Shown: positions 4,197 to 62,335, numbered from the stretch's first letter. The stretch: DNA of 64,000 nt from an uncultured Planctomycetales bacterium (GCA_964535025.1 CAZHRW010000198.1:4300-68299), one strand, 5' to 3'. Notes: a model not told the origin generated them from the sequence alone. A program made the numbers and translations.

Positions 4197-5326
4197 ACAA
4201 CGCCGCTTCGCTGGCCGCCTGCGGGATGGCCGCGTCGATCCCGTCGATGATCGTCTTGGTCGACGGGCCCTCGCCCTGGATGCGGAGGAACTCCTTGCCG
4301 ATCCGGCGCACGGTCCCGGCCGACTCGAACGCGGCGTTGACCGTCAGGGTGTGCGGGCGGCACATCTCCAGCGAGCAGCGAAGCAGGGACGGATCATTCG
4401 CCTCGGCGGCGGCGATGAAGTTCTCGAACTTGGCCACGTCGAGCTGCGAGTCGTCCAGGGCCGGCTCCTCGATCCGCCCGTCGTTGGTCCGCAGGCTCGC
4501 CCGCCCCGGGCTGTGGAAGGCGACGCCCTCGCTGCCGTGCACGACGACCTCGGGGTTGAAATGCTGGTCGGCGCACAGCGTGGCCAGGAAGAAGCAGCGC
4601 GGCCCCTCGCGGGTGAGGATCTCGACGGCGGCGGTGTCCTCGCTGTCGATGGCGTGGCCGGCGTACAACTCGGCCCGCACCGCCACGGGCGTCGCCAGCG
4701 TGCGGCGGCGGGGCGAGGCGAGGTAGAGCATGTTCAGCAGGTAGTGCGCCAGCGGGTTGTTGATCGACCCGTCGAGGACCCACCGGTCGCCCAGGCGTAC
4801 CCGCCCGGCCCAGGCGGCCCGCTGGTAGTACTCCTGCTTGCGGATCCACCCGGCGGTGCAGGTGATGCGGTCGATCGTCCCCAGGGCGCCCTCGCCGACG
4901 CGGAGCTTCAGCAGCGCCATGCTGCGGCTGTGCAGCCATTGGAACCCCACCGCACAGAGACGCCCGGCGGCGCGGGCGGCGGCGACCATCTCGTCGAAGT
5001 CCTGGATGGTCGCGGCGGCGGGCTTCTCGAGGAAGACGTGGTAGCCGCTGCGGACCGCCGCGATCGTCAGCGGCGCGTGCGTGTGGATCGGCGTGGGGAT
5101 CGTCACCGCGTCCATCTTGCCGCGCATCGCGTCGAACATCACCTCCGCGTCGTTGAAGATCGCCACGCCCTGGCCACGCAACTCCTCCAGCCGCGCCGAG
5201 TGGTTCGCCGGATCGATCACCGCCGTGGCGACGATCCGGCAGGCCCCGCTGCGCTGCACCTCCTCCAACGCCCGCCAGTGATTGCTCGCGAAGCCCCCGA
5301 TCCCGAGGATCCCGATCCGCACCATG
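4063..5326 (-). CDS. Gfo/Idh/MocA family NAD(P)-dependent oxidoreductase
   Basis: MVRIGILGIGGFASNHW Rossmann N-terminus followed by the EKP motif. GGAAGGGAG ribosome-binding site upstream of the ATG at 5326. The longer ORF extension to 5649 is low-complexity and rejected. Confidence 0.8.
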
Positions 5327-26619: not shown

Positions 26620-27957
26620 CTAGGCGGCCTGTTCCGCCTCGGCCATCGCGACGGCCTTCGGCGGGCGGACGATCGCGGCCAGAGCGGCGGCGACCAGACA
26701 GGCGACCCCGGCGATGATGAACGGAGCCAGCCAGGCGCCCACCTGGCCGGCGGCGGTGTCCTTGAAATAGCCGGCGACCTGCGGGCCGGCGATCCCCGCG
26801 ATGCCGTACGCCAGGAAAACCCAGCCGTAATTGGCGCCCAGGTGCTTGGTGCCGAAGAAGTCGGCCGTCGCCACCGGGAACAGGGCGAAGTTGCCGCCGA
26901 AGTTGAAGCCGATGATGCACGCGCCGACGATCAGACCCAGTTCGGTGCGTCCCAGGTAGAAGAACAGCAGCATGATGACGCCCTGCAGGGCGCACATCAG
27001 CAGCAGCGACAGGCGCGTCCCAATCTTGTCCGAGACGCTGCCCCACACAATCCGTCCCAGACCGTTGAGGATCGCATACAGCGCCATCGCCGTGCCGGCG
27101 ATCCGCCCGGCGGCGGCCTCGTTGGCGACGGCCTTGGAGGCCTGCAGCGCGTCGATGCCGAACAACTTGATACAGCCGATGACCATCAGCCCGGCCAGGG
27201 CCGAGCCGACGAACATGAGCAGCAACCCGTAGTACTGGGGCGTCCTGAGCATCTGATTGGCGGTGTAATCGACCAGCTTGGCGCGGCCGCCGGTATCGAC
27301 GGCCTCGGGCGGCACGTAACCTTTGGGCCTGTACCCGTCCGGCGGGTTGATCATCACGATGCTGCCCAGCAACACCAGGACGGCGAAGACGATGCCGTAG
27401 ACGATGAACACGCCTTGTACGCTCGGCAGGCCGAACAACTCGACGGTATTCAACAGCCCTCCGAACCAACTGCCGGCCAGCTTGACCCACAGGGTCGCGC
27501 CGAAGCCGAATCCGGCGACGGCCAGACCGCTGACCATGCCCTTCTTGTCGGGGAACCATTTAACGCCCACGGCAATGGGGACCACATAGCCCAGACCGAT
27601 CCCGGCCCCGCCGATGACGCCGATGCAGATGAACTGGGCCGCGAAGGAACTGCCCAAAAACCCGCCCAGGATGTACCCGAGCCCGAGGACCAGCCCGCCC
27701 GCCACGGCCAGGGCGCGTGGTCCCGTGCGGGGCATCATGCGTCCGGCGATGACCATGACCACGGCGAACGTGGCCAGGCCGGCCGAGAAGATCCACATGG
27801 TCTGGCCCGTGGTGAAGCCGTACGGGCCATCGGCGGCGACGAGGCGATCCGTGAACACGCTCCAGGCGTAGATGGCGCCCAGGCAGAGCTGGATGAGGAT
27901 GGCTCCCACGACGACCAGCCAGCGATTCAGAACGGCGGGGTTGTCTTGATCATTCAT
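26620..27957 (-). CDS. MFS transporter, oxalate/formate antiporter (OFA) family-like
   Basis: 12-TM profile. AAGGAG ribosome-binding site. Sequence typical of OFA/MCT-type MFS (WLVVVGAILIQLCLGAIYAWSVF). Confidence 0.85.
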   Translation of the reverse strand: MNDQDNPAVLNRWLVVVGAILIQLCLGAIYAWSVFTDRLVAADGPYGFTTGQTMWIFSAGLATFAVVMVIAGRMMPRTGPRALAVAGGLVLGLGYILGGFLGSSFAAQFICIGVIGGAGIGLGYVVPIAVGVKWFPDKKGMVSGLAVAGFGFGATLWVKLAGSWFGGLLNTVELFGLPSVQGVFIVYGIVFAVLVLLGSIVMINPPDGYRPKGYVPPEAVDTGGRAKLVDYTANQMLRTPQYYGLLLMFVGSALAGLMVIGCIKLFGIDALQASKAVANEAAAGRIAGTAMALYAILNGLGRIVWGSVSDKIGTRLSLLLMCALQGVIMLLFFYLGRTELGLIVGACIIGFNFGGNFALFPVATADFFGTKHLGANYGWVFLAYGIAGIAGPQVAGYFKDTAAGQVGAWLAPFIIAGVACLVAAALAAIVRPPKAVAMAEAEQAA

Positions 27958-28072: not shown

Positions 28073-30067
<1,995 letters not shown>

Positions 30068-30088
30068 CTATCCTTTCTTTGACCATGG

Positions 30089-30102
30089 GGCACGAACGTG
30101 CC
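30089..30102. promoter_or_regulatory. palindrome GGCACGAACGTGCC just upstream of the acs start
   Basis: Perfect 6-2-6 inverted repeat 22-35 bp upstream of the acs ATG (minus strand). Confidence 0.3.
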
Positions 30103-30254
30103 TGCCCTCGAACGATAAACCCTCCGTCCAGGCACCCCGCCGTGGCGGAGGCCTGCCGGGGGTGTCCGGCGCCTGGGACGGAACGTACAGGTTCCAGCCA
30201 TTGTGCGGCAGGGGTTGGGGTTGTGCAAACAGAAAACGCTAAAATGAGGTAAAC

Positions 30255-30270
30255 TGTGAAACGATTCACA
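30255..30270. promoter_or_regulatory. CRP/FNR-type binding site consensus TGTGA-N6-TCACA
   Basis: Exact TGTGAaacgatTCACA, extended to CTGTGAAacgaTTCACAG, in the acs/acuC divergent intergenic region. Confidence 0.4.
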
Positions 30271-30306
30271 GCAAACGGCGACCCGGCGGGCCGACAAGGC
30301 GCGATT

Positions 30307-30362
30307 TCGCAACTTTGCGACTTCGATTCCCAAGGCTGCAAATTGAATTCGCAAGCTTGCGA
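30307..30362. promoter_or_regulatory. two copies of the palindrome TCGCAA-N2-TTGCGA, 42 bp centre-to-centre (candidate operator pair)
   Basis: TCGCAActTTGCGA (30307-30320) and GAATTCGCAAgcTTGCGAATTC (30345-30366, core 30349-30362), in a locally AT-rich stretch. Confidence 0.35.
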
Positions 30363-30717
30363 ATTCGAAGAAGGGACAGAAGCACAAAGACGCCGAGCTA
30401 TCTCGGTATTGCAACTCCGAAATTGTAACCCCTTGCCATTACTCACCTGCCACCCGGCATGCCCGCCCCAAAGACGGCATCTCTTTCGGCCGCTCAATGA
30501 ACCGTTCTCCCAACCGCTTCGGCGCGGCCGGGTGTGCGAGCGGCGGGCCCGGTGACAGACCGCCTCGCACGCCCCGCGCCCCGGCGGGCAAAAACCCTTG
30601 TTCCCAGCGGGGCTGGGCGTTAAGGTTCGGGCATGTGTGGGCGGTCGGCCGGGAACCCCTTCTGTGCTGGAGAGTGAAGTGGCTGCCACATACCCAACGC
30701 GGCCTCGGGCCGCTTTC

Positions 30718-31866
30718 ATGTGGGATGAGCGTTTCGATCGCAACGCGTACCCGACCACGATCCCCTTCCGGACGGATCGGGCCGCGATGGCCCGTCGAAC
30801 GTTGAGGTCGATGGGGATGCTCTCGGCGCGCGACGAGGCCCCGGTGGTTCCGGCGACCCGCGAGCAGATCGAGCGGTTCCACGACGGGCACTACCTTGAC
30901 GTGATGCTCGCCGCCGAGCGGGGCGACATGGGCGTCGAGGGTCTGCGCATGGGGTTCGGGACGGGCGATTGCCCCGTGTTCCGGGGCATGTACGCCCACG
31001 GCGCCCTGGCCGCCGGGGCCACGCTGGGCGCCGCCGAGCTGATCCTGTCGGGCGAGGTGACCGTGGCGTTCAACCCGCACGGGGGGTTCCACCACGCCGG
31101 GCCCGACTATGCCGCGGGGTTCTGCTATATCAATGATGTGGTCCTCGGCTGCCTGGCCCTGGTGGAGGCGGGGCGGCGGGTGCTGTTCCTGGATATCGAC
31201 GTCCACCACAGCGACGGCGTCCAGAACGCCTTCTACCACCGCGCGGACGTCTGCGTCATCTCCATGCACGAGACCGGACGGCGGCTGTTCCCCGGGACCG
31301 GCTTCGTCCACGAGACCGGCGTCGAGGCCGGCGCCGGCTACAGCGTTAACGTCCCGCTGCCGCCGGGCACGTACGACGACGCCTACCTGCGGGCCTACCG
31401 GTCGGTGGTGGCGCCGGTTATCGATCGCTATGAGCCGGACGTGCTCGTCGTGGAAGTGGGGATGGACGGGCTCGTCGGCGATCCCCTGGCGGAGTTGGCG
31501 TTGACCAACAACACCCACGCGGCGATCCTGACCGACCTGCTGGAGCGCCACAAGCCCCTGCTGGCCCTCGGCGGCGGCGGGTATCATCCGGAAAACAGCG
31601 CCCGCGGGTGGGCGCTGGCCTGGGGCGTGATGACCGGCCAGGACGTCGACGCCGACGCCGCCGTCGGGCTCGGCGGGGTCATGCTCTCCAGCACCGATTG
31701 GCACGGCGGCCTGCGGGACCGCGTCCACGAGCCGCTCCCGGATCAGCGCGAGGCCGTGGACCGCCAGGTCGATCGCGTGATCGACGATGTCATCGAGCGG
31801 GTCTTCCCGCGACTGGGCCTGACGGACGGGCGGTCGGCCGGCGGAAAGGACAGCATCGGCGCATGA
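30718..31866 (+). CDS. acuC: AcuC/HDAC-family (arginase-deacetylase fold) protein deacetylase or acetoin utilisation protein
   Basis: Histone-deacetylase-family motifs (GGFHHAGPDYAAGFCYINDV, FLDIDVHHSDGVQNAF, GGGGYHPEN). The ATG at 30718 is preferred over the upstream TTG. Confidence 0.85.
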   Translation: MWDERFDRNAYPTTIPFRTDRAAMARRTLRSMGMLSARDEAPVVPATREQIERFHDGHYLDVMLAAERGDMGVEGLRMGFGTGDCPVFRGMYAHGALAAGATLGAAELILSGEVTVAFNPHGGFHHAGPDYAAGFCYINDVVLGCLALVEAGRRVLFLDIDVHHSDGVQNAFYHRADVCVISMHETGRRLFPGTGFVHETGVEAGAGYSVNVPLPPGTYDDAYLRAYRSVVAPVIDRYEPDVLVVEVGMDGLVGDPLAELALTNNTHAAILTDLLERHKPLLALGGGGYHPENSARGWALAWGVMTGQDVDADAAVGLGGVMLSSTDWHGGLRDRVHEPLPDQREAVDRQVDRVIDDVIERVFPRLGLTDGRSAGGKDSIGA

Positions 31867-33968
31867 GTGTCAAGGCGTTGTTCAATCCGAACTCCGTGGC
31901 GGTGGTGGGCGCCTCGGCCGGTCGAGGCAAGGTGGGCAACGAGGTGCTGCGCAGCCTGATCCGGGGCGGGTTCGACGGGCCCATCTACCCGGTCAACCCC
32001 AAGGGCGGCGAGGTGGAAGGCCTGACGTGCTACGTCGATCTGGCCGCGATCGGCGAAACGCCCGACCTGGTCGTGATCGTCGTGCCCGCCAAGGCCGTGC
32101 CGGAGGTGATGCGACAGTGTGCGTCCCTGAAGGTCACCTCCGTCGTGGTCCTCTCGGCGGGCTTCCGCGAGTCCGGCCGCGAAGGCGAGCAGCTCGAGCG
32201 GGAGATCGTCCAGATCGCCCGCCGGGCCGGCATCCGCATGGTGGGGCCCAACTGCGTGGGCCTGATGTCCGTGCACAACAAGCTCAACGCCTCCTTCGGG
32301 GGCGACCTGCCCGTGCCCGGCTCGATCGGCTACTTCTCCCAGTCCGGCTCCCTGCTGGCGGCGATCCTGGACATGGCCAACGCCGGCGGCGTGGGGTTCA
32401 GCAAGCTGATCAGCATCGGCAACAAGGCCGACGTCGACGAGCTGGACGTGCTGAAGGCGTTCGCCGAGGACGAGCAGACCAAGGTCATCGCCGGCTACCT
32501 CGAAACGATCGCCGACGGCGACGCCTTCATGCGCGAGGCCGAGGCCGTCAGCCGTCACAAGCCCATCCTGTTGATGAAGGCCGGCGAGACCGGCTCGGGC
32601 ACCGTGGCCGCCAGCAGCCACACCGGGTCGCTGGTGTCGCGTCAGGCGGCGTTCGAGAGCATTTTCGCCCGCGCGGGGATCGTGCGCTGCCAGTCGATCA
32701 AGGCCCAGTTCGACTACGCCTGCGCCCTGGCCAGCCAGCCGCTGCCGGCGGGCAAGCGCGTGGCGGTCGTCGCCAACGCCGGGGGCGCCGGGATCATGGC
32801 GGTCGACGCCATCGAGCGCGAGGGGCTGGAACTGGCGCCGCTGACCGACGCGACCCGGTCGCGCCTCGCCGAGAGCCTGCCGCCCTCGGCGAACGTGAAC
32901 AACCCCGTCGACGTCCTCGGCGACGCCCTGGCCGACCGCTACCAGGTGGCCGTCGAGGCGGTGATGGAGGACCCCCATGTCGACGTTGTTCTGACGTTGT
33001 TGACGCCCCACGCGATGACCGAGTGCGCGCCGACGGCGCGGATGGTCGTCGAGGCGGCGGCGCGGACGGACAAGCCGGTGCTGGCGTGTTTCCTCGGCGC
33101 CCGGCGGATGGCCGAGGCGGTCGACGTGCTCCGCGCGGGGGGCGTGCCCCGCTACGACTCCCCCGAGGCCGCCGTCGCCACGATCGCGGCGATGGCCAAC
33201 TACGCGACGTTCCTCAAGCGGCCCGAACGGGTCGTGCGGCTGTTCCCGGTCAACCGCCGCAAGGTCGAGACGATCATCGATCGCCACCTCCAGCGCGACG
33301 CGCTGGAGATCGGCGAGATGGAGGCCCAGGAGATCCTCCAGGCCTACGGATTCGTCACGCCCCGCGGGGCGGTGGCCACCTCGCCCGAGCAGGCCGTCAA
33401 CATCGCCCGGCAGATCGGCTACCCCGTCGTGCTGAAGATCTGGTCGCCCGATATCCTCCACAAGACCGACGTCGGGGGCGTACGGCTCGGGCTCAACAGC
33501 GACGACGACGTCATGGACGCGTTCGACCTGATGATGTACCGCATCCCCCGCAAGCGTCCCGACGCCGACATCCTCGGCGTCCTGGTCCAGCAGATGGTCT
33601 CGGGGGGCACCGAGGTCATTCTCGGCATGCACCGCGACGAACGCTTCGGCCCGCTGATGATGTTCGGCATGGGCGGGAGGATGGTCGAGGTGCTCAAGGA
33701 CGTGGCGTTCTACCTTGCCCCCATTACCGCCGAGGAGGCCAAGCAGATGCTCCTGAGCACCCAGACCTACCAGTTGCTCACCGGCGGCGGCGGGCGGGAG
33801 GGCGTGGACCTCGACGCCCTCGCCGAGGGTCTGCAGCGGCTCAGCCAGTTGGTCACCGAATTCCCCCAGATTCAGGAAATGGACATCAACCCCTACGTCG
33901 CCGGCCCCGAGGGCACTTCCCCGATCGCCGTCGACGCCTTTATCCGTCTGCGCAACAACGCGGACTGA
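31863..33968 (+). CDS. acetate--CoA ligase (ADP-forming) family protein: fused alpha (CoA-binding, succinyl-CoA-synthetase-like) and beta (ATP-grasp) domains, 701 aa
   Basis: SVAVVGAS..GKVG CoA-binding N-terminus, ligase-CoA domain, C-terminal ATP-grasp. Start overlaps the acuC stop (ATGA). Confidence 0.85.
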   Translation: MSVKALFNPNSVAVVGASAGRGKVGNEVLRSLIRGGFDGPIYPVNPKGGEVEGLTCYVDLAAIGETPDLVVIVVPAKAVPEVMRQCASLKVTSVVVLSAGFRESGREGEQLEREIVQIARRAGIRMVGPNCVGLMSVHNKLNASFGGDLPVPGSIGYFSQSGSLLAAILDMANAGGVGFSKLISIGNKADVDELDVLKAFAEDEQTKVIAGYLETIADGDAFMREAEAVSRHKPILLMKAGETGSGTVAASSHTGSLVSRQAAFESIFARAGIVRCQSIKAQFDYACALASQPLPAGKRVAVVANAGGAGIMAVDAIEREGLELAPLTDATRSRLAESLPPSANVNNPVDVLGDALADRYQVAVEAVMEDPHVDVVLTLLTPHAMTECAPTARMVVEAAARTDKPVLACFLGARRMAEAVDVLRAGGVPRYDSPEAAVATIAAMANYATFLKRPERVVRLFPVNRRKVETIIDRHLQRDALEIGEMEAQEILQAYGFVTPRGAVATSPEQAVNIARQIGYPVVLKIWSPDILHKTDVGGVRLGLNSDDDVMDAFDLMMYRIPRKRPDADILGVLVQQMVSGGTEVILGMHRDERFGPLMMFGMGGRMVEVLKDVAFYLAPITAEEAKQMLLSTQTYQLLTGGGGREGVDLDALAEGLQRLSQLVTEFPQIQEMDINPYVAGPEGTSPIAVDAFIRLRNNAD

Positions 33969-34011
33969 CAGGGGCGCCTCCCGGTGCAATAATACCCGGG
34001 AGGCCGCCACC

Positions 34012-35889
34012 ATGACACGGGCAGATATCATGCAGCAGTTCGACTGGAAAACCAAGTACGCCAAGCGAATCCGCAACGCCGTCAGCGCGATGAAACTCAT
34101 CCAGGCCGGCGACTCGATCTTCATCGGCACCGGGTGCGGCCAGCCGCAACATCTGGTCGACGCCCTGGTGACCCATTCCGGCCACATCGCCGACGCCCAC
34201 GTCATCCACCTGCTGACCATGGGCGCGGCCCCCTACGCCGACGAGAAGTTCCGCGACAAGTTCAAGATGAACAGCTTCTTCGTCGCCGCCAACGTCCGCG
34301 AGGCCCTCGAGCGCGGGGTCGGCGACTACACCCCGATCTTCCTTTCGGAGATCCCCAACGAGTTCGAATCCGGGCGGATCCCCATCGACGTCGCCCTCGT
34401 CACCGTCACGCCCCCCGACGTCAACGGGCTGTGCAGCCTCGGGGTCTCCGTCGACATCGTCAAGTCCGCCGCCGCCAACGCCAAGCGGGTCATCGCCCAG
34501 GTCAACACCCGCATGCCCCGGACCCTCGGCGACAGTTTCCTCCACGTCAACAACATCGATGCCCTTGTCCCCCACGACGAGGAACTGATCGAATCGCCCA
34601 ACGCCGAACTCGACGAAACCATGCAGCGGATCGGGCACAACCTCGCACGCCTGGTCGAAGACGGCTCCACCATCGAGTGCGGGATCGGCCGCATCCCCCA
34701 GGCCATGGCCGAGGCACTCAAGGGCAAGAAGGAACTCGGCATCCACACCGAGATGATCGGCGACTGGATCATCAACCTGATCGAGTGCGGCGCGGTCACC
34801 TGCTCCAAGAAAACCATTAACCGCGGCAAGGTCGTCCTGAGCTTCTGCATGGGCACGCGTCGGCTCTACGACTACATCGACAACAACCCGTTCTTCGAGT
34901 TCCACCCCACCGAGTACGTCAACGACCCGTTCGTGATCAGCCAGCACGACAAGATGGTCGCCATCAACGTGGGGCTCGAAGTGGATCTGACCGGCCAGGT
35001 GTGCGCCGATTCGCTGGGCTACAAGATCTACTCCGGCATCGGCGGCCAGGTCGACTTCATCCGCGGCGCCGCGCGGAGCCGCGGCGGCAAGCCCATCATC
35101 GCCATGCAGTCGACGGCCCGCGACGGGACCGTCTCGCGCATCGTGCCCCACCTGACCGAGGGCGCCGGCGTGGTCACCACCCGCGGGGACGTCCACTACG
35201 TCGTCACCGAGTACGGCATCGCGTACCTGCACGGCAAGTCCATCCGTCAGCGGGCGCTGTCGCTGATCAATATCGCCCACCCCAAGTTCCGCAACGGGTT
35301 GATCCAGGCCGCCAAACGCCAGAAGTACCTCTACGAGGACCAGATCGAGCTGGACTGGGAGGAACTGACCTACCCGGAGGAGCTGGAGCATTACGAGACG
35401 CTCCGCGACGGGACGCAGATCTTCTTCCGCCCCGTCAAGCCCACCGACGAACCGGCCCTGGCCGAGATGCTCTACTCGCTCAGCCGCGAATCGGTCCGCA
35501 CGCGGTACTTCACCGCCACCATGACCTTCCCCCACAAGGATGTCCAGCGGCTGACCAACATCGACTACCAGCAGGACCTCGCCATCGTCGGCTGCGTGCC
35601 GAGTCCGGCCGGGGAGGAGATCGTCGCCATCAGCCAGTACTTCCTCGACCCCAAGACCGGCGTCGCCGAGGTCGCCTTCATCGTTCAGGACGAGTGGCAG
35701 CAGCGCGGCATGGGCAGTTTCCTGCTGAGCTACATCACCCAGATTGCCCGCCAGCGCGGGGTCAAACGCTTCTTCGCCAAGGTCCTGCCGTCCAACAAGG
35801 CCATGCTCAACATCTTCCATAACAGCGGCTACCCCGTCCATACGGAGTTCGACGGGGAGGCGTATTCGATCTACTACGACATCAACTGA
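34012..35889 (+). CDS. acetyl-CoA hydrolase/transferase-family domain fused to a C-terminal GNAT N-acetyltransferase domain
   Basis: N-terminal ~430 aa acetyl-CoA hydrolase / 4-hydroxybutyrate-CoA-transferase-like. C-terminal ~170 aa GNAT fold (VAEVAFIVQDEWQQRGMGSFLL, RFFAKVLPSNKAML). GGGAGG ribosome-binding site. Confidence 0.85.
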   Translation: MTRADIMQQFDWKTKYAKRIRNAVSAMKLIQAGDSIFIGTGCGQPQHLVDALVTHSGHIADAHVIHLLTMGAAPYADEKFRDKFKMNSFFVAANVREALERGVGDYTPIFLSEIPNEFESGRIPIDVALVTVTPPDVNGLCSLGVSVDIVKSAAANAKRVIAQVNTRMPRTLGDSFLHVNNIDALVPHDEELIESPNAELDETMQRIGHNLARLVEDGSTIECGIGRIPQAMAEALKGKKELGIHTEMIGDWIINLIECGAVTCSKKTINRGKVVLSFCMGTRRLYDYIDNNPFFEFHPTEYVNDPFVISQHDKMVAINVGLEVDLTGQVCADSLGYKIYSGIGGQVDFIRGAARSRGGKPIIAMQSTARDGTVSRIVPHLTEGAGVVTTRGDVHYVVTEYGIAYLHGKSIRQRALSLINIAHPKFRNGLIQAAKRQKYLYEDQIELDWEELTYPEELEHYETLRDGTQIFFRPVKPTDEPALAEMLYSLSRESVRTRYFTATMTFPHKDVQRLTNIDYQQDLAIVGCVPSPAGEEIVAISQYFLDPKTGVAEVAFIVQDEWQQRGMGSFLLSYITQIARQRGVKRFFAKVLPSNKAMLNIFHNSGYPVHTEFDGEAYSIYYDIN

Positions 35890-35966: not shown

Positions 35967-37376
35967 TCACCCCTTGTAGTCCTCCTTGCGGAGGGCGTGG
36001 CGTTTCATCTTCTCGTAGAGTGTCCGGGTCTCGATGCCGGCGGCGCGGGCGGTCTGGTCGACGCGGCCGTCGGTGCGGGCCAGCCAGGCGTGGAGGTAGG
36101 CGCGTTCGAGTGCGTCGGTGATCTCGCGGCGGATCTCCCCGAGCGGCCGCTCCAGCCACGCGGCGGGGATGGCGCCGTCGGCCAGGTCCCCCAGGTGCGT
36201 CGGGCCCGTCGTCGTCGCCAGGCCCGGCGGGAGGCAGTCGACGTCGATGAAGCCGTCCTCGCCCAGCAGCAGGGCCCGCTCGAGGATGTTGTGCAGCTCG
36301 CGGATATTGCCCGGCCAGTCGTAGCGGACCAGCGCTTCGCCGGCCGCGTCGCTGATCCGCGCATTGTGCACGCCCAGGCGGGGGGCGACCCGCGCCAGGG
36401 CCCGCTCGATCAGATGCGGCAGGTCGGCGCGCCGTTCCCGCAGCGGCGGGAGGGTGAGCGTAACGACGCTGAGGCGGTAGTACAGGTCCCGCCGGAAGTT
36501 GCCCTCGGCCACCTCCTCGGCCAGGTCCCGGTTGGTCGCGGCGATGACGCGGACATCCACGCGGAGCGACCGCTCGGAGCCGAGCCGCCGGACCTGGTGG
36601 TCGTGGAGGACCCGCAGGAGCTTGACCTGCAGGTGGCGGGGCATCTCGCCGATTTCGTCGAGGAAGATCGTGCCGGCGTGGGCCAGCTCGAAGCAGCCCC
36701 GACGGCCGCGATTGGCGCCGGTGAACGCGCCGGCCTCGTGGCCGAACAGTTCGCTCTCCATCAGCGACTCGGGCAGCCCCCCGCAGTTGATCGCCACGAA
36801 CGGCCCGGCCCGTCGGGGCCCGGCGGCGTGGATCGCCCGGGCGAGGTGCTCCTTGCCCACGCCCGTCTCGCCCTGGATCAGCACCGCGCTGCCGGTCCGG
36901 GCGACGCGGTCGGCCATGTGCAGCAGCGACTGCATCGACGGGACCACCGATTGGAAGTCCGACAACAGGGGCGGCTGGGTCGGCGCCTCGGCGTCGTAGC
37001 CCCGCTGTCGCCGTGCGATTTCCGCCTGAATCGCCCCGGCGAGGACCTCGTCGCGCAGGCCCGTGTAGAGGATCCGATCCGCCCCGGCGGCCAGGAAGCC
37101 CGACTGCTCGGCCGCGCGGTCCTCCTCGACCATCAGCACGACCGAGGGGTTTTCCGGCAGGTTTCGCACCAGCGCGATGCTGTCGGCCAGGGTGTCGGCG
37201 ACCGTCGATTCGTGGGCGATCAATACGTCGAAGCTCCGACGGGCCGCCCGCTCCCACAGGTGCTTCTCCCCGCGCAGCAGGTCGACCACCGTGTCCTGAC
37301 GGGGCAGCATCGCCCGGACGCGTCGTCGCAGGTCCGTGTCGGGGATCACCAGCATGATCCGGATCAGCATGGCCAT
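35967..37376 (-). CDS. sigma-54-dependent transcriptional activator (NtrC-family enhancer-binding protein) with N-terminal receiver-like domain
   Basis: AAA+ sigma-54 interaction domain (GETGVGKE, GAFTGA, ESELFGHE) and C-terminal Fis-type HTH. GGAGGTGAA ribosome-binding site. The phospho-acceptor position of the receiver appears to be HES instead of D. Confidence 0.85.
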   Translation of the reverse strand: MAMLIRIMLVIPDTDLRRRVRAMLPRQDTVVDLLRGEKHLWERAARRSFDVLIAHESTVADTLADSIALVRNLPENPSVVLMVEEDRAAEQSGFLAAGADRILYTGLRDEVLAGAIQAEIARRQRGYDAEAPTQPPLLSDFQSVVPSMQSLLHMADRVARTGSAVLIQGETGVGKEHLARAIHAAGPRRAGPFVAINCGGLPESLMESELFGHEAGAFTGANRGRRGCFELAHAGTIFLDEIGEMPRHLQVKLLRVLHDHQVRRLGSERSLRVDVRVIAATNRDLAEEVAEGNFRRDLYYRLSVVTLTLPPLRERRADLPHLIERALARVAPRLGVHNARISDAAGEALVRYDWPGNIRELHNILERALLLGEDGFIDVDCLPPGLATTTGPTHLGDLADGAIPAAWLERPLGEIRREITDALERAYLHAWLARTDGRVDQTARAAGIETRTLYEKMKRHALRKEDYKG

Positions 37377-58201: not shown

Positions 58202-58276
58202 GCCTTCTGACTCGGGGCGACTGGATTTGAACCAGCGACCTCCTGACCCCCAGTCAGGCACGCTAACCAAGCTGCG
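58202..58276 (-). tRNA. tRNA-Pro (anticodon GGG)
   Basis: Minus-strand cloverleaf CGGGGCGTGGCGCAGCTTGGTTAGCGTGCCTGACTGGGGGTCAGGAGGTCGCTGGTTCAAATCCAGTCGCCCCGA. Confidence 0.85.
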
Positions 58277-58388
58277 CCACGCCCCGTGGGTGTCGGCGGC
58301 AGGCCGACGACCCACTATTGTACCGGCGGGGCGGCCGGGCTGCAAGATGGGGCGGTGGGCGAAAATGATGGGTTTTTTTCGCGGTCGC

Positions 58389-59204: not shown

Positions 59205-59275
59205 TGAAGGCATGACCCGCACCGCCGGCCGGATCGCCGCCGTCGCGGTCGCCGGGCCGGATGAGGGGAGACGTC

Positions 59276-62200
59276 GTGAACGATGAAACCTATGGAGCCG
59301 ACCTGAACGAACGGGCCACCTTCGCCGAGGCGCCCCGCCGCCGTCGCCGGTGGCTGCTGCCGGCGGTCGCGGTGCTCGTCGCGGCGGCGGTGGGAATCGG
59401 CGGCTGGTGGTACGCCGCCACGCCGCACTCGGCGGCCGAGCAGCTCGAGGCGGCCGCGGCGGCGAAGGCCGATTACCTCGGGCGGGCGGGGCAACTGGCG
59501 GCGGACGAGGCGGCGGCCGAGCGCGAGAAGGTGGTCGAGGCCTACAGGCGGGTCTTCACGGCCTTCGAGGCCACCGACGAGCAGGCCGCGACGGCCCATG
59601 AGCAACTCGCTCAGCTCCACGACCACGCCGGCGACACCGCCGCCGCCCGCCGGTGGTGGACGCAATTGATCGACCGCTACGGCGAGACGGCCCAGGCCCG
59701 CGACGCCTACGAGGCGCTCATCGACAGCTACCTCGCCGAGGCCAAGTCGCTGCTCGCGGCCGACCCGGACGCCGCCGGGGAACGGCTCGACCAGGCCGTC
59801 GACGTCTGCCGGGGATTCGTCGACCGTTACGGGACCGACGACCCCGACGCGCCGGCGGTGGCCATGCGCCGCTGCCGTATCCTCGACGACCTGATCGGCG
59901 AGCCCGCCGAGGCGATCCAGGCGGCGCTGGAGGACTTCGTCGCCACCTACGGCGACAGCGACCTGGTCGATGAGGCCCTCTGGCGGCTGGGCCGCCTCCA
60001 CGAGCGGATCGCCGAGCCGCGAGCGGCGGCGGCGTATTACGAACGACTCATCAACGACTACCCCGACTCGCCCTGGCTGAAGCAGGCCGAGATCGGCCGC
60101 GCCCGTGCCGTCAGCGAGTTCGACAGCGAACGGGGCGAGGCGCTCTGGCGGGAGCTGGCGGCCAAGTACGCCGACGACCCCGAGATCGAGCACGAAGCGC
60201 GGCGTGAAGCCGAGCGGCTCGAAGCGCAACAGCAGGCCGAGGCCGATCGCGAGCAGGCCGAGACGGCCCAGCGGGACGCCCGGGACTACCGCCGCCGGCG
60301 CTACGGCGGCGGCGGGGGCGCCGGCGGGGGCGGGCCCGTTGACAGCGGCTGGGGCAAGCCCATCCCGCCCAGCGAGATGCTCCGCGACTTCATCGACCAG
60401 AAGGTCGACGCCGAGCACTATCGCCTGGAGCTCACGGTCGACCCGGACGCCCACGCGCTGGAGATCACCGGTTCGGTCGTCCTGGTCAACGGCGGCCAGG
60501 CGAAGGAGGATTTCCTCCTCATGCTCGGGCCGCTGTTCGAGCCGGGCGCGTTCGCCCTGGACGGCCGTCCGGTCGAGGTCGTCCGCCCCTCGGGCAAGGC
60601 CGAGGTGATCCAGGTGCGCCTGGACGAGCCCTGGGCGGCCGGCGCGCGAGCGACGCTGACGTTCGCCTACACCGCCACCGTTGAGCCGCTCGAATGGCCC
60701 GAGACGCTCGATGAGCAACTGCTCGATCAGCTATCGGCCCGGCGTCCGGCAGGGCTCTTGGTGGCGTCCCCGGTTCCGTCAGCCCCGCAGGGGCGGCCTG
60801 ATTCTGCCGGGGGCGTCAGCCCCCGGTGTCAGGGCTTCTTCCGCGCTGAGCCCCGGAGAGGCGACCTGATGCTCCCGGGGGCGTCAGCCCCCCGGGCCAT
60901 CGCGTCAGGATGCCGCATGGGCAAACTGAAGCCCCCGCGCCCGTCGCGCGCCCACGGCCGCACGGGGGCGCGCCTGTGGGCGGCGCAGGTGTCTGACGAC
61001 GGCGACGAGACGCCGCCCGCGCCCGAGACGATCGCCGGGCTTCTGCGGAACCCGGGTCTGCAACTGCAGATCAACGACAGCGGCTACGCCCTCAGCGGGG
61101 CGGCGTGGTATCCGGTGACGATCTTCGGCGACCTGTTCACCGCCGAGATCGCCGTGACGCTGCCGGAGGATCTGACGGTCCTGTGCAGCGGCGCCGCGGC
61201 CGGCGAGCGGACCGCCGACGGCCGGCGGACGACGACGTGGCGGTGCGAAGAGCCCTATTTCGGCCTGTATTTCGCCTACGGCCCCTACGAAAGCGCCTCG
61301 CGTGACGTGGACGGCCTGACCATCAGCGTCCACTTTTTAGCCCAACGGCGGGCCGAACAGCGGGCCGAACAGCAGGCTGATCAAGCCGCTCGCATGGAGG
61401 CGTATCTTGACGTCGCCGAGGCGATCCTCACCGAGTACATTGCGCACTTCGGCCCGTTCCCGTTCGAGAAGCTGGCGATGGCGGAGGTCAAGCTGCCGCC
61501 GATCCTCGGCGGCGTCGGCCCGGCGAGCCTGACGTTCCTGCACCACGGTGTCGTCGCGGGGCGCGAGGCGGTGCCGGTCAACCTGTTGGCCCACGAGCTC
61601 AGCCACCAGTGGTGGGGCAACCAGGTGCCGATCAACCTCATCGACGAGCGCTACAGCCAGTGGCTCTCGGAGGGCTTCGCCACCTACAGCGACGCGCTGT
61701 ACACCGAATGGAGCGAGGGCGCCGGGCCGTTCCGCGAGCACATCCGCGAGCTGGGGGGGCTTTATCTGGAGCAGTCCGCCCACGTCCGCGAGGAGGCCAT
61801 CGTCGAGACCTTCATGGGCCAGAGCCCGCTGTACCGCCCGGTCGTCTACGAGAAGGGCGCCCTGGTCCTGCACGCCCTGCGCTACGTGCTCGGCGACGAG
61901 ACCTTTTTCGAGGTGCTGCGGGAGTACGTGCGGACGTATGCGTTCACGCCGTCCACGGTGGACGATTTCCGCCGCCTGGCCGCCGAGCGGGCGGGCGAGA
62001 ATCTCGACTGGTTCTTCGACGAGTGGCTCGACCGGCCGGGCTGCCCGCACATCGAGCTGGCCGACGTCACGGTCGAGCCGGGCGACGGGGAGGGCGTCTG
62101 GACGGTCGTCGTCTCACTCGCCCAGCCGGCCCACCTCAGCCGCATGCCGATCGACGTGGTGGTCCTCGGCGACGACGGCCGCGCCCGCCGCGTGCGAACG

Positions 62201-62335
62201 GCCCTGGACCGCAAGGCCCACACGGTGAAGATCGAGGTGGCGTTCCCCGTCAAGCGCGTCGTCCTCGACCCCGACGACTGGGTCCTCCGCCGCACGGCGC
62301 CGGACGAGTGGCCGCCGGACGAGGCAGCGCGGTAA
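59276..62335 (+). CDS. TPR-repeat domain fused to an M1-family zinc aminopeptidase domain
   Basis: GTG at 59276 with a GAGGGGAG ribosome-binding site (ATG at 59261 is an alternative). TM helix then TPR repeats (about 380 aa). M1 domain with HELSHQWWGN...E gluzincin motif and GAMEN-position segment KLAMAEV. Confidence 0.7.
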   Translation: MNDETYGADLNERATFAEAPRRRRRWLLPAVAVLVAAAVGIGGWWYAATPHSAAEQLEAAAAAKADYLGRAGQLAADEAAAEREKVVEAYRRVFTAFEATDEQAATAHEQLAQLHDHAGDTAAARRWWTQLIDRYGETAQARDAYEALIDSYLAEAKSLLAADPDAAGERLDQAVDVCRGFVDRYGTDDPDAPAVAMRRCRILDDLIGEPAEAIQAALEDFVATYGDSDLVDEALWRLGRLHERIAEPRAAAAYYERLINDYPDSPWLKQAEIGRARAVSEFDSERGEALWRELAAKYADDPEIEHEARREAERLEAQQQAEADREQAETAQRDARDYRRRRYGGGGGAGGGGPVDSGWGKPIPPSEMLRDFIDQKVDAEHYRLELTVDPDAHALEITGSVVLVNGGQAKEDFLLMLGPLFEPGAFALDGRPVEVVRPSGKAEVIQVRLDEPWAAGARATLTFAYTATVEPLEWPETLDEQLLDQLSARRPAGLLVASPVPSAPQGRPDSAGGVSPRCQGFFRAEPRRGDLMLPGASAPRAIASGCRMGKLKPPRPSRAHGRTGARLWAAQVSDDGDETPPAPETIAGLLRNPGLQLQINDSGYALSGAAWYPVTIFGDLFTAEIAVTLPEDLTVLCSGAAAGERTADGRRTTTWRCEEPYFGLYFAYGPYESASRDVDGLTISVHFLAQRRAEQRAEQQADQAARMEAYLDVAEAILTEYIAHFGPFPFEKLAMAEVKLPPILGGVGPASLTFLHHGVVAGREAVPVNLLAHELSHQWWGNQVPINLIDERYSQWLSEGFATYSDALYTEWSEGAGPFREHIRELGGLYLEQSAHVREEAIVETFMGQSPLYRPVVYEKGALVLHALRYVLGDETFFEVLREYVRTYAFTPSTVDDFRRLAAERAGENLDWFFDEWLDRPGCPHIELADVTVEPGDGEGVWTVVVSLAQPAHLSRMPIDVVVLGDDGRARRVRTALDRKAHTVKIEVAFPVKRVVLDPDDWVLRRTAPDEWPPDEAAR

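Follow-up and report, generated by a model that had tools for sequence, protein, structure and literature searches.

We analysed a gene for a protein in which a CoA-transferase (CoAT) is fused to a GNAT acetyltransferase, together with the genes that surround it, in an uncultured Planctomycetales bacterium (GCA_964535025.1, CAZHRW010000198.1:4300-68299). The whole stretch of 64,000 nucleotides is called the window in the following; it has a G+C content of about 69%, and genes were called by third-position GC content (GC3). An initial annotation had proposed a split version of the protein acetyltransferase Pat, consisting of a stand-alone ADP-forming acyl-CoA synthetase (Acd) of 701 amino acids (aa) without a GNAT domain and, downstream of it, the CoAT-GNAT fusion. 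The open reading frames (ORFs) and Pfam domains bear out this layout, down to the exact coordinates of both genes, and the GC3 of the two ORFs (0.90-0.93) is of the coding type. The features of the locus are as follows.

26620..27957, minus strand: MFS monocarboxylate transporter, SfMCT-type, downstream of acs (Pfam MFS_1, 6.5e-40)
28073..30067, minus strand: AMP-forming acetate-CoA ligase (Acs) (TIGR02188, 994 bits, cut-off 725; NF001208, 1038 bits)
30068..30678: intergenic regulatory region from which acs and the HDAC-Acd-fusion operon diverge (palindromic sites in the sequence)
30598..31866, plus strand: class I HDAC-family lysine deacetylase, AcuC-like (Pfam Hist_deacetyl, 9e-78)
31863..33968, plus strand: Acd, fused alpha-beta, 701 aa (Pfam domains)
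33969..34014, plus strand: RNA hairpin in the spacer between Acd and the fusion gene (predicted fold)
34012..35889, plus strand: CoAT-GNAT fusion protein, 625 aa (Pfam, NCBIfam, AlphaFold2)
34036..35322, plus strand: CoAT domain, aa 9-437 (4-hydroxybutyrate CoA-transferase family)
35368..35886, plus strand: Pat-type GNAT domain, aa 453-625 (alignment with PatZ and PatA, fold)

acs is transcribed divergently from the operon HDAC-Acd-fusion, in which the HDAC stop codon overlaps the Acd start codon (ATGA, 31863-31866) and Acd is followed on the same strand by the fusion gene after a gap of 43 nt. The initial annotation had missed both the overlapping HDAC gene and the divergent acs. We infer that Acd is cotranscribed and translationally coupled within this operon. 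The likely true start of the HDAC gene is a GTG at 30679, which is preceded by GGAGAG. For the fusion gene, orthologues suggest Met7 (34030) as a possible alternative start, but 34012 is backed by a Shine-Dalgarno sequence, GGGAGG, that lies 8 nt in front of it. The transporter exceeded the cut-off of the NCBIfam model for L-lactate MFS transporters (NF049980, 339.5 bits versus a cut-off of 320), and an MFS homologue adjoins acs in many related loci.

The fusion protein and the neighbouring enzymes

The fusion protein matched AcetylCoA_hydro (aa 9-192, 4e-29), AcetylCoA_hyd_C (aa 281-434, 6.5e-69) and Acetyltransf_1 (aa 507-607, 3e-8) in Pfam, and the domain E values of this ORF and of Acd are far beyond chance. 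The CoAT domains scored 231 and 102 bits with cut-offs of about 24. The catalytic Glu247 (codon 34750-34752) aligned with E238 of AbfT from C. aminobutyricum (3gk7), the GGQ oxyanion motif at aa 344-346 is intact, and HTEM and GGQ.DF are kept in about 80 orthologues. Domains, glutamate and oxyanion motif place it among the class I CoA-transferases, in the family of 4-hydroxybutyrate CoA-transferase, whose catalytic glutamate is E238 in AbfT and E249 in RipA and whose oxyanion motif is GxGG(Q/F). The nearest solved sequence is that of TtCoAT from Thermus (9VAG; 450 bits, E = 1e-133), and the fold gave TM-scores of 0.93 to 0.96 to 4-hydroxybutyrate CoA-transferases. The equivalog for butyryl-CoA:acetate CoA-transferase, TIGR03948, was not reached (285.6 bits versus a cut-off of 674.8).

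The C-terminal domain is a Pat-type GNAT, as the initial annotation had it. It aligned with residues 709-869 of Escherichia coli PatZ (84 bits), a span that takes in E809, the RYF region and the YP..LE extension, and also with the GNAT of S. lividans PatA; the catalytic Glu553 (codon 35668-35670) pairs with PatZ E809. The acetyl-CoA loop Q563-x-x-G566-x-G568 is present, and AEVAF and Q..G.G are conserved throughout the family (82 aligned sequences). With its catalytic glutamate and acetyl-CoA loop the domain belongs to the Pat family, and its fold matched that of the S. lividans PatA GNAT (4U5Y), which was solved in complex with the C-terminal domain of Acs, with a TM-score of 0.92 and a root mean square deviation of 1.8 Å. 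The best NCBIfam model for this domain was that of mycobacterial Pat (ActPatMycb56), matched with 85 bits and not reaching its equivalog cut-off of 460. In type I Pat a synthetase-like domain stands N-terminal to the GNAT; here the N-terminal 437 aa are made up of AcetylCoA_hydro and AcetylCoA_hyd_C. An AlphaFold2 model of the fusion, built on a diverse 41-sequence alignment, had a pLDDT of 89.8 and a pTM of 0.85 with an ordered linker, and CoAT and GNAT are predicted to form one rigid two-domain unit. No solved chain spanning the CoAT and GNAT halves was found in the structure comparison.

The catalytic Lys624 of Acs (codon 28196-28198) lies in the motif PKTRSGK624IMRR, which is invariant in 34 orthologues and is the sole match to PxTx[ST]GK in the 64-kb window; this motif, PKTRSGK624, together with a conserved neighbourhood is what marks Acs as a candidate target, Pat-family enzymes being acetylators of the catalytic lysine (PX4GK motif) of AMP-forming acyl-CoA synthetases. 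The nearest solved relatives of the deacetylase are Rpd3, Clr6, HDLP and HDAC8 (about 1e-60 to 1e-56). Its segments GGFHHA, DIDVHHSDG, GMDGLVGD and GGGGY align with Rpd3, and it has the His-His dyad, the Asp-His-Asp set that binds zinc and the catalytic Tyr, as in Zn-dependent class I HDACs and AcuC-like proteins; no NCBIfam model matched the protein.

Acd contains the domains CoA_binding_2 (3e-28), Succ_CoA_lig (6e-47), Ligase_CoA_2 (3e-11) and ATP-grasp_5 (4.5e-81), and the Pfam search of the 701-aa protein found no GNAT domain. It shares the five-subdomain set and both catalytic histidines with the ADP-forming acetyl-CoA synthetases (ACDs; EC 6.2.1.13), represented by the enzyme of Ca. Korarchaeum (4XYL; 310 and 182 bits to chains A and B) and the 4-hydroxybutyrate-CoA ligase of Nitrosopumilus (8WZU; 525 bits), the latter having the same fused alpha-beta order. 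The phospho-His loop ASSH253TGS (His253, codon 32619-32621) is intact and lines up with its counterpart in ACDs of solved structure, and H533KTD (His533, codon 33459-33461) is present in the beta domain; SHTG and HK[ST] predominate in 73 aligned Acd sequences. The scores for the NCBIfam models were slightly under the cut-off for TIGR02717 (538.3 versus 567.15 bits) and far below the cut-offs for NF045493, NF045492 and NF045494.

The synthetase-like domain of Pat is inactive owing to a missing phospho-His (PMC8556138). Indeed, BLAST against the fetched patZ gave a 4-residue deletion and no histidine at the phospho-His site of E. coli PatZ. Acd is 29% identical to PatZ (316 bits) but scored 525 bits with a genuine ADP-forming ligase. 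Since both catalytic histidines are kept in Acd and PatZ is without them, Acd reads as a genuine enzyme, and it looks like a genuine ADP-forming acyl-CoA synthetase rather than the catalytically dead Acd-like module of type I Pat. The residues singled out by the initial annotation (the phospho-His of Acd, the glutamate of CoAT and the acetyl-CoA loop of the GNAT) are thus all intact. Its idea that Acd is the detached regulatory pseudoenzyme of Pat is not supported, given the retained His253 and H533 and the 29% identity to PatZ, and the alternative that it had offered, a genuine acetate-forming enzyme, is favoured by the sequence, in which the intact active-site histidine named there as one part of the evidence that would speak against a split Pat was found. 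The best structural matches of both CoAT and Acd are named after 4-hydroxybutyrate, but a 4-hydroxybutyrate pathway was rejected as a coincidence of naming, because TtCoAT is a broad short-chain fatty acid (SCFA) transferase and 8wzu merely shares the fused alpha-beta order.

Conservation in close relatives and in divergent lineages

All 120 top database matches were full-length fusions of about 620 aa with both domains and 77-88% identity, and their source names were Planctomycetota, Phycisphaerae, Sedimentisphaerales and Latescibacteria. In species-representative genomes, at least 161 stretches were found to encode a relative of the fusion. Of the 80 loci that were kept, most are from Planctomycetota and a few carry the labels Lentisphaerae, Verrucomicrobiota or Aminicenantes, although binning errors may account for some labels. 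The initial annotation had suggested checking the distribution of the fusion. Its neighbourhood is conserved: among the 72 loci whose upstream DNA was long enough, 68 have Acd directly upstream of the fusion gene and 3 more have it within 2.3 kb (71/72 in total). HDAC was present in 30 and Acs in 24 of the 36 loci that had at least 6 kb on both sides. Two gene orders recur in the 80 loci, and both keep the genes of the cluster together: in one, Acd, fusion and HDAC precede an oppositely oriented pair of MFS and Acs; in the other, which is that of the window, the oppositely oriented pair comes first and HDAC, Acd and fusion follow. The catalytic residues of Acd, CoAT and GNAT are all conserved across 72-81 extracted orthologues. 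Of the four proteins, the fusion varies least: over the same genome pairs its median pairwise identity is 75%, followed by Acs with 74%, Acd with 64% and HDAC with 55%. One locus from a Phycisphaerae metagenome-assembled genome (MAG) (L069, 7902-17168) carries a tandem duplication, Acd-fusion-Acd-fusion-HDAC, and its second fusion copy is 71% identical to the window protein.

The GNAT domain alone was then searched against 1.84 billion representatives at 50% identity, which gave 13,409 relatives at E <= 0.001. Among the best 150 representatives, a census biased to relatives of the query in which architectures were confirmed by Pfam on samples, 68 had the CoAT-GNAT architecture (one of them with an additional C-terminal HDAC domain), 67 were GNAT-only or fragments, 9 were of the GNAT-Acd type (type II) and 6 of the Acd-GNAT type (type I). 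A rough neighbour-joining tree, which carries no support values, has type I and type II in a cluster each; its largest group is made up of the GNATs that are fused to CoAT.

The two halves of the fusion differ in how well their residues are kept. The catalytic residue of the GNAT is E or D in 66 of the 68 CoAT-GNAT representatives, and G566 is kept in 63. The catalytic glutamate of CoAT is present in 20 of the 41 representatives that cover the position, with Asp in 11 and other residues in 10, and glutamate and GG motif occur together in only 12 of the 41. GNAT is kept and the CoAT glutamate is often lost; therefore, GNAT chemistry is what the fusion conserves, and CoAT catalysis is dispensable. 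By analogy, this is the same pattern of decay as in the dead Acd domain of Pat (PMC8556138; PMC12184503).

The gene context was informative in eight divergent lineages; one further locus was too short to judge. Acd is immediately upstream of the fusion in two of them, L083 and L091, and both Acds keep both histidines. The CoAT of L083 is dead (Glu replaced by Ala), and the gene order of L091 is AMP-ligase, small ORF, Acd and fusion, the ligase having the motif PKTRTGK. Because these two have it and the other six are without it, the pairing with Acd is recurrent but not universal, and Acd looks catalytically competent, as judged by its residues, wherever it is present.

Two architectures extend the fusion. 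P0249 (L082, 8001-11042, from a metagenome) is a CoAT-GNAT-HDAC triple fusion of 1013 aa, a single chain that has both a writer, the Pat-type acetyltransferase, and an eraser, the class I deacetylase; the CoAT site of this protein is degenerate (HTD, no GG), and neither Acd nor Acs is encoded nearby. In P0172 (960 aa), a 4Fe-4S dicluster ferredoxin domain precedes CoAT-GNAT, and the CoAT site is degenerate, with Gln instead of Glu; RJO65015.1, a member of its cluster, comes from a Myxococcales MAG. The domain order of P0172 suggests a redox input to CoAT-GNAT acetyltransferases in some lineages.

Possible roles of the fusion

Among the closest known systems is Pat/PatZ (YfiQ) of Salmonella enterica and E. 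coli, in which the GNAT is homologous (84 bits), with the catalytic glutamate, the acetyl-CoA loop and the N-terminal extension aligned. PatZ and the fusion both carry a large N-terminal acyl-CoA-binding module derived from a CoA-thioester enzyme, and Pat/CobB acts on Acs, which, with PKTRSGK, is likewise the presumed target here. The module itself differs: in the window it is a CoA-transferase (class I, 4-hydroxybutyrate CoA-transferase family) whose catalytic glutamate is kept, whereas in PatZ it is an NDP-forming synthetase. The putative eraser in the window is an adjacent Zn-dependent class I HDAC and not a sirtuin such as CobB, and, unlike the fused domain of PatZ, Acd is separate, catalytically intact and encoded immediately upstream.

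The layout, in turn, resembles acsA/acuABC of Bacillus subtilis, where acs is divergent from an operon for an acetyltransferase and a class I HDAC-type deacetylase. The logic of that system is feedback control of Acs, and the same logic is proposed for the window. However, Bacillus AcuA is a single-domain type IV GNAT and not of the Pat type, whereas the GNAT of the window is of the Pat type and fused to CoAT; AcuB is also missing, there being no CBS/ACT gene in the window cluster, and the Bacillus operon is without Acd and CoA-transferase. A CoAT of the same family is tied to protein acetylation in Thermus thermophilus, where TtCoAT (TT_C1083, 9VAG), a broad acetyl-CoA:short-chain-acid transferase, is the main substrate of the lysine acetyltransferase (KAT) TT_C1711 and the lysine deacetylase (KDAC) TT_C0104. 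There, CoAT, KAT and KDAC are separate proteins, CoAT is the acetylation substrate, and regulation runs via an alanine-dehydrogenase-like NAD+ sensor; in the window, CoAT and GNAT are one polypeptide and the likely target is Acs. The Acd of the window would almost always be cotranscribed with a protein acetyltransferase; we know of no characterised ACD for which this has been described.

We give about an even chance to the reading that the CoAT-GNAT protein is a Pat-family lysine acetyltransferase that uses its CoAT as a sensing module in a reversible switch of Acs. The module that replaces the dead Acd domain of Pat appears to be the fused CoA-transferase. It would bind acyl-CoA, in this clade probably still turning it over, and would report the acyl-CoA state to the rigidly attached GNAT, which would acetylate the catalytic Lys624 of the neighbouring Acs and so turn Acs off; the class I HDAC-type enzyme would strip the acetyl group from Acs again. 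Acd would make acetate and ATP from acetyl-CoA, and its coexpression with the Acs-inactivating acetyltransferase would prevent an ATP-wasting futile cycle of Acs and Acd.

For this reading speak the Pat-type GNAT, the invariant lysine motif of a bona fide Acs next door, a class I HDAC that is encoded beside Acd and in P0249 lies on the same chain, the conserved neighbourhood, which L091 repeats in part, the decay of CoAT residues beside a kept GNAT, the rigid two-domain model, the histidines of Acd and the precedent of TtCoAT. Several observations weigh against it. It is from homology and gene context that we infer Acs as the target, the sensor role of CoAT, the substrates and the futile-cycle logic, and the census and the tree are, respectively, query-biased and rough. 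Acs was absent within 10 kb in 12 of the 36 well-flanked loci, and Acd, Acs and a separate HDAC gene were absent nearby in 6 of the 8 informative divergent lineages, one of which is that of P0249 with its fused HDAC domain; the acetylation target may differ between lineages. Acd scores slightly under the TIGR02717 cut-off, and over its full length it matches a 4-hydroxybutyrate ligase best; what it acts on need not be acetate and acetyl-CoA. Finally, with about 78% identity to the window protein (versus 64% for Acd), the CoAT domain is better conserved than any other part of the cluster, and an intact CoAT in this clade may serve mainly in metabolism and not as a sensor.

A stronger version of the switch, which we consider unlikely, makes CoAT-GNAT a sixth class of lysine acetyltransferases in which the ping-pong CoAT is a covalent sensor of the acyl-CoA:carboxylate ratio. 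The fraction of CoAT present as the Glu247-CoA thioester would follow the acetyl-CoA:acetate ratio and would gate the GNAT, and Acs would be switched off by this ratio and not by the acetyl-CoA concentration alone. Acd, always adjacent and catalytically intact, may enter the same complex, and a dead CoAT would mark lineages that are further along the path from enzyme to sensor that gave the dead Acd of Pat.

If Acd instead bound CoAT-GNAT non-covalently, sensing acetyl-CoA and shaping the substrate pocket in trans while possibly also being an enzyme, the locus would be a split Pat, as the initial annotation had proposed. The part of that proposal that stands is the tight linkage of a stand-alone Acd to a Pat-type GNAT fusion; the part that fell is the dead regulator, so that the idea survives only weakened, with Acd as what may be a non-covalent partner. 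The near-obligate adjacency in the family of the window (68/72, and 71/72 within 2.3 kb), very short spacers or overlapping genes, and the recurrence of the pairing in the distant L083 and L091, the former with a catalytically dead CoAT, are consistent with it. So is the order Acd, (CoAT), GNAT, which mirrors the Acd-GNAT order of type I Pat, and in PatZ the regulatory domain is required for GNAT activity and shapes the Acs pocket (PMC12184503). However, both catalytic histidines of Acd are kept in every lineage examined, whereas the Pat domain is without the phospho-His (PMC8556138), Acd is nearer to genuine ACDs than to PatZ (525 versus 316 bits), six of the eight informative divergent lineages have no Acd nearby, and metabolic logic explains cotranscription equally well. 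We therefore regard a split Pat as doubtful.

Equally improbable, in our view, is a bifunctional metabolic enzyme whose CoAT activates short-chain acids from the MFS transporter with acetyl-CoA made by Acs and whose GNAT acetylates CoAT, in cis, or Acd, thereby tuning this route, and does not control Acs. The glutamate and GGQ of CoAT are essentially invariant in the clade, with about 78% identity across planctomycete classes, and TtCoAT is a real acetyl-CoA:SCFA transferase that is required for growth on butyrate and is a major substrate of a GNAT KAT and a KDAC; its acetylated Lys5 aligned with K18 of the window protein. But the equivalent of Lys5 is not conserved, the family consensus being K17-D18-K19, and Lys5 was rejected as a conserved auto-acetylation site (K18 here, K-D-K in the family). 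In Thermus, acetylation left the activity of CoAT itself unchanged. Moreover, since the CoAT glutamate is gone from about half of the divergent CoAT-GNAT lineages, in which the GNAT is kept, CoAT catalysis is not the conserved reason for the fusion, and the conserved neighbour is the canonical Pat target, Acs with PKTRSGK.

A GNAT that acetylates small molecules or N termini with acetyl-CoA from CoAT, and has no role in protein lysine acetylation, is very improbable: many GNATs do acetylate small molecules, there are weak NCBIfam matches to the ArsN1 and RimI models, and a fused acetyl-CoA-producing enzyme could supply the substrate, but these models were far below their cut-offs, the GNAT is in the Pat clade by sequence and fold with the Pat-specific N-terminal elements included, and a protein-type class I HDAC is a conserved neighbour and in one lineage is fused to it.

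Bacterial protein acetyltransferases are divided into five types by their regulatory domain, and CoAT-GNAT is missing from this classification (PMC8556138); a structure-based survey of 2025 searched only for six known architectures (PMC12184503). The statement of the initial annotation that the fusion is uncharacterised agrees with our reading of the literature: no description of a CoAT-GNAT fusion was found in full-text papers, subscription-only papers being outside the search. What is new here is a Pat-type system with a different enzyme-derived, putatively regulatory domain and a conserved operon partnership with Acd that had not been described. The architecture is common, with at least 161 stretches in reference genomes and 68 of the 150 nearest GNAT clusters (a query-biased sample). 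If CoAT is a sensing module, this would be a second, independent case in which an acyl-CoA-metabolising enzyme was recruited as the sensor of a Pat-type acetyltransferase, and since living lineages span the range from a fully catalytic to a clearly dead CoAT, the evolution of a pseudoenzyme sensor is directly testable. Planctomycetota include Acd-containing fermenters whose acetate formation is poorly understood (PMC5673643), and the arrangement of the window suggests a way in which they might avoid an Acs/Acd futile cycle.

Regulatory sequences and other features of the window

The intergenic region between acs and HDAC contains a perfect CRP/FNR-type site, TGTGA-N6-TCACA, at 30255-30270, a TCGCAA-N2-TTGCGA site at 30307-30320 and a perfect 22-bp palindrome, GAATTCGCAAGCTTGCGAATTC, at 30345-30366, which holds a second TCGCAA-N2-TTGCGA; these sites are the inverted repeats I1, I5 and I8. 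The window has TCGCAA-N2-TTGCGA at these two places only, the 80 related loci are without it, and it is probably a lineage-specific operator. A Phycisphaerae locus with the same gene order as the window (L008) has a TGTGA-N6-TCACA near 5195, about 84 nt upstream of acs.

The hairpin in the spacer between Acd and the fusion gene (33969-34014) has a minimum free energy of -28.4 kcal/mol (z = -4.2), and none of 200 shuffled sequences was as stable. The GGGAGG Shine-Dalgarno sequence of the fusion gene is buried in its 3' arm, and a sigma-70-like pair of hexamers (33965-33993, 10 of 12 matches) overlaps it. In this organism the predicted hairpin may uncouple or tune translation of the acetyltransferase. 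Because the spacers in 71 related loci are mostly no longer than 20 nt (median, 17 nt), the hairpin is not conserved, and both the intergenic palindromes and the hairpin were rejected as conserved regulatory elements and are lineage specific.

Convergent with the fusion gene is a gene for a sigma-54-dependent activator of the NtrC/AtoC-like type (35967-37376, minus strand). It was rejected as a member of the system, since just 2 of the 80 related loci have a homologue close to the fusion, and is probably outside it. Rfam located a tRNA at 58212-58286 (minus strand) and an Acido-Lenti-1 small RNA motif at 60781-60826 (minus strand; 44.3 bits, gathering score 37), the latter within a long ORF on the plus strand (59261-62335). 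Across the final 2 kb of the window, the G+C content falls to 0.60.

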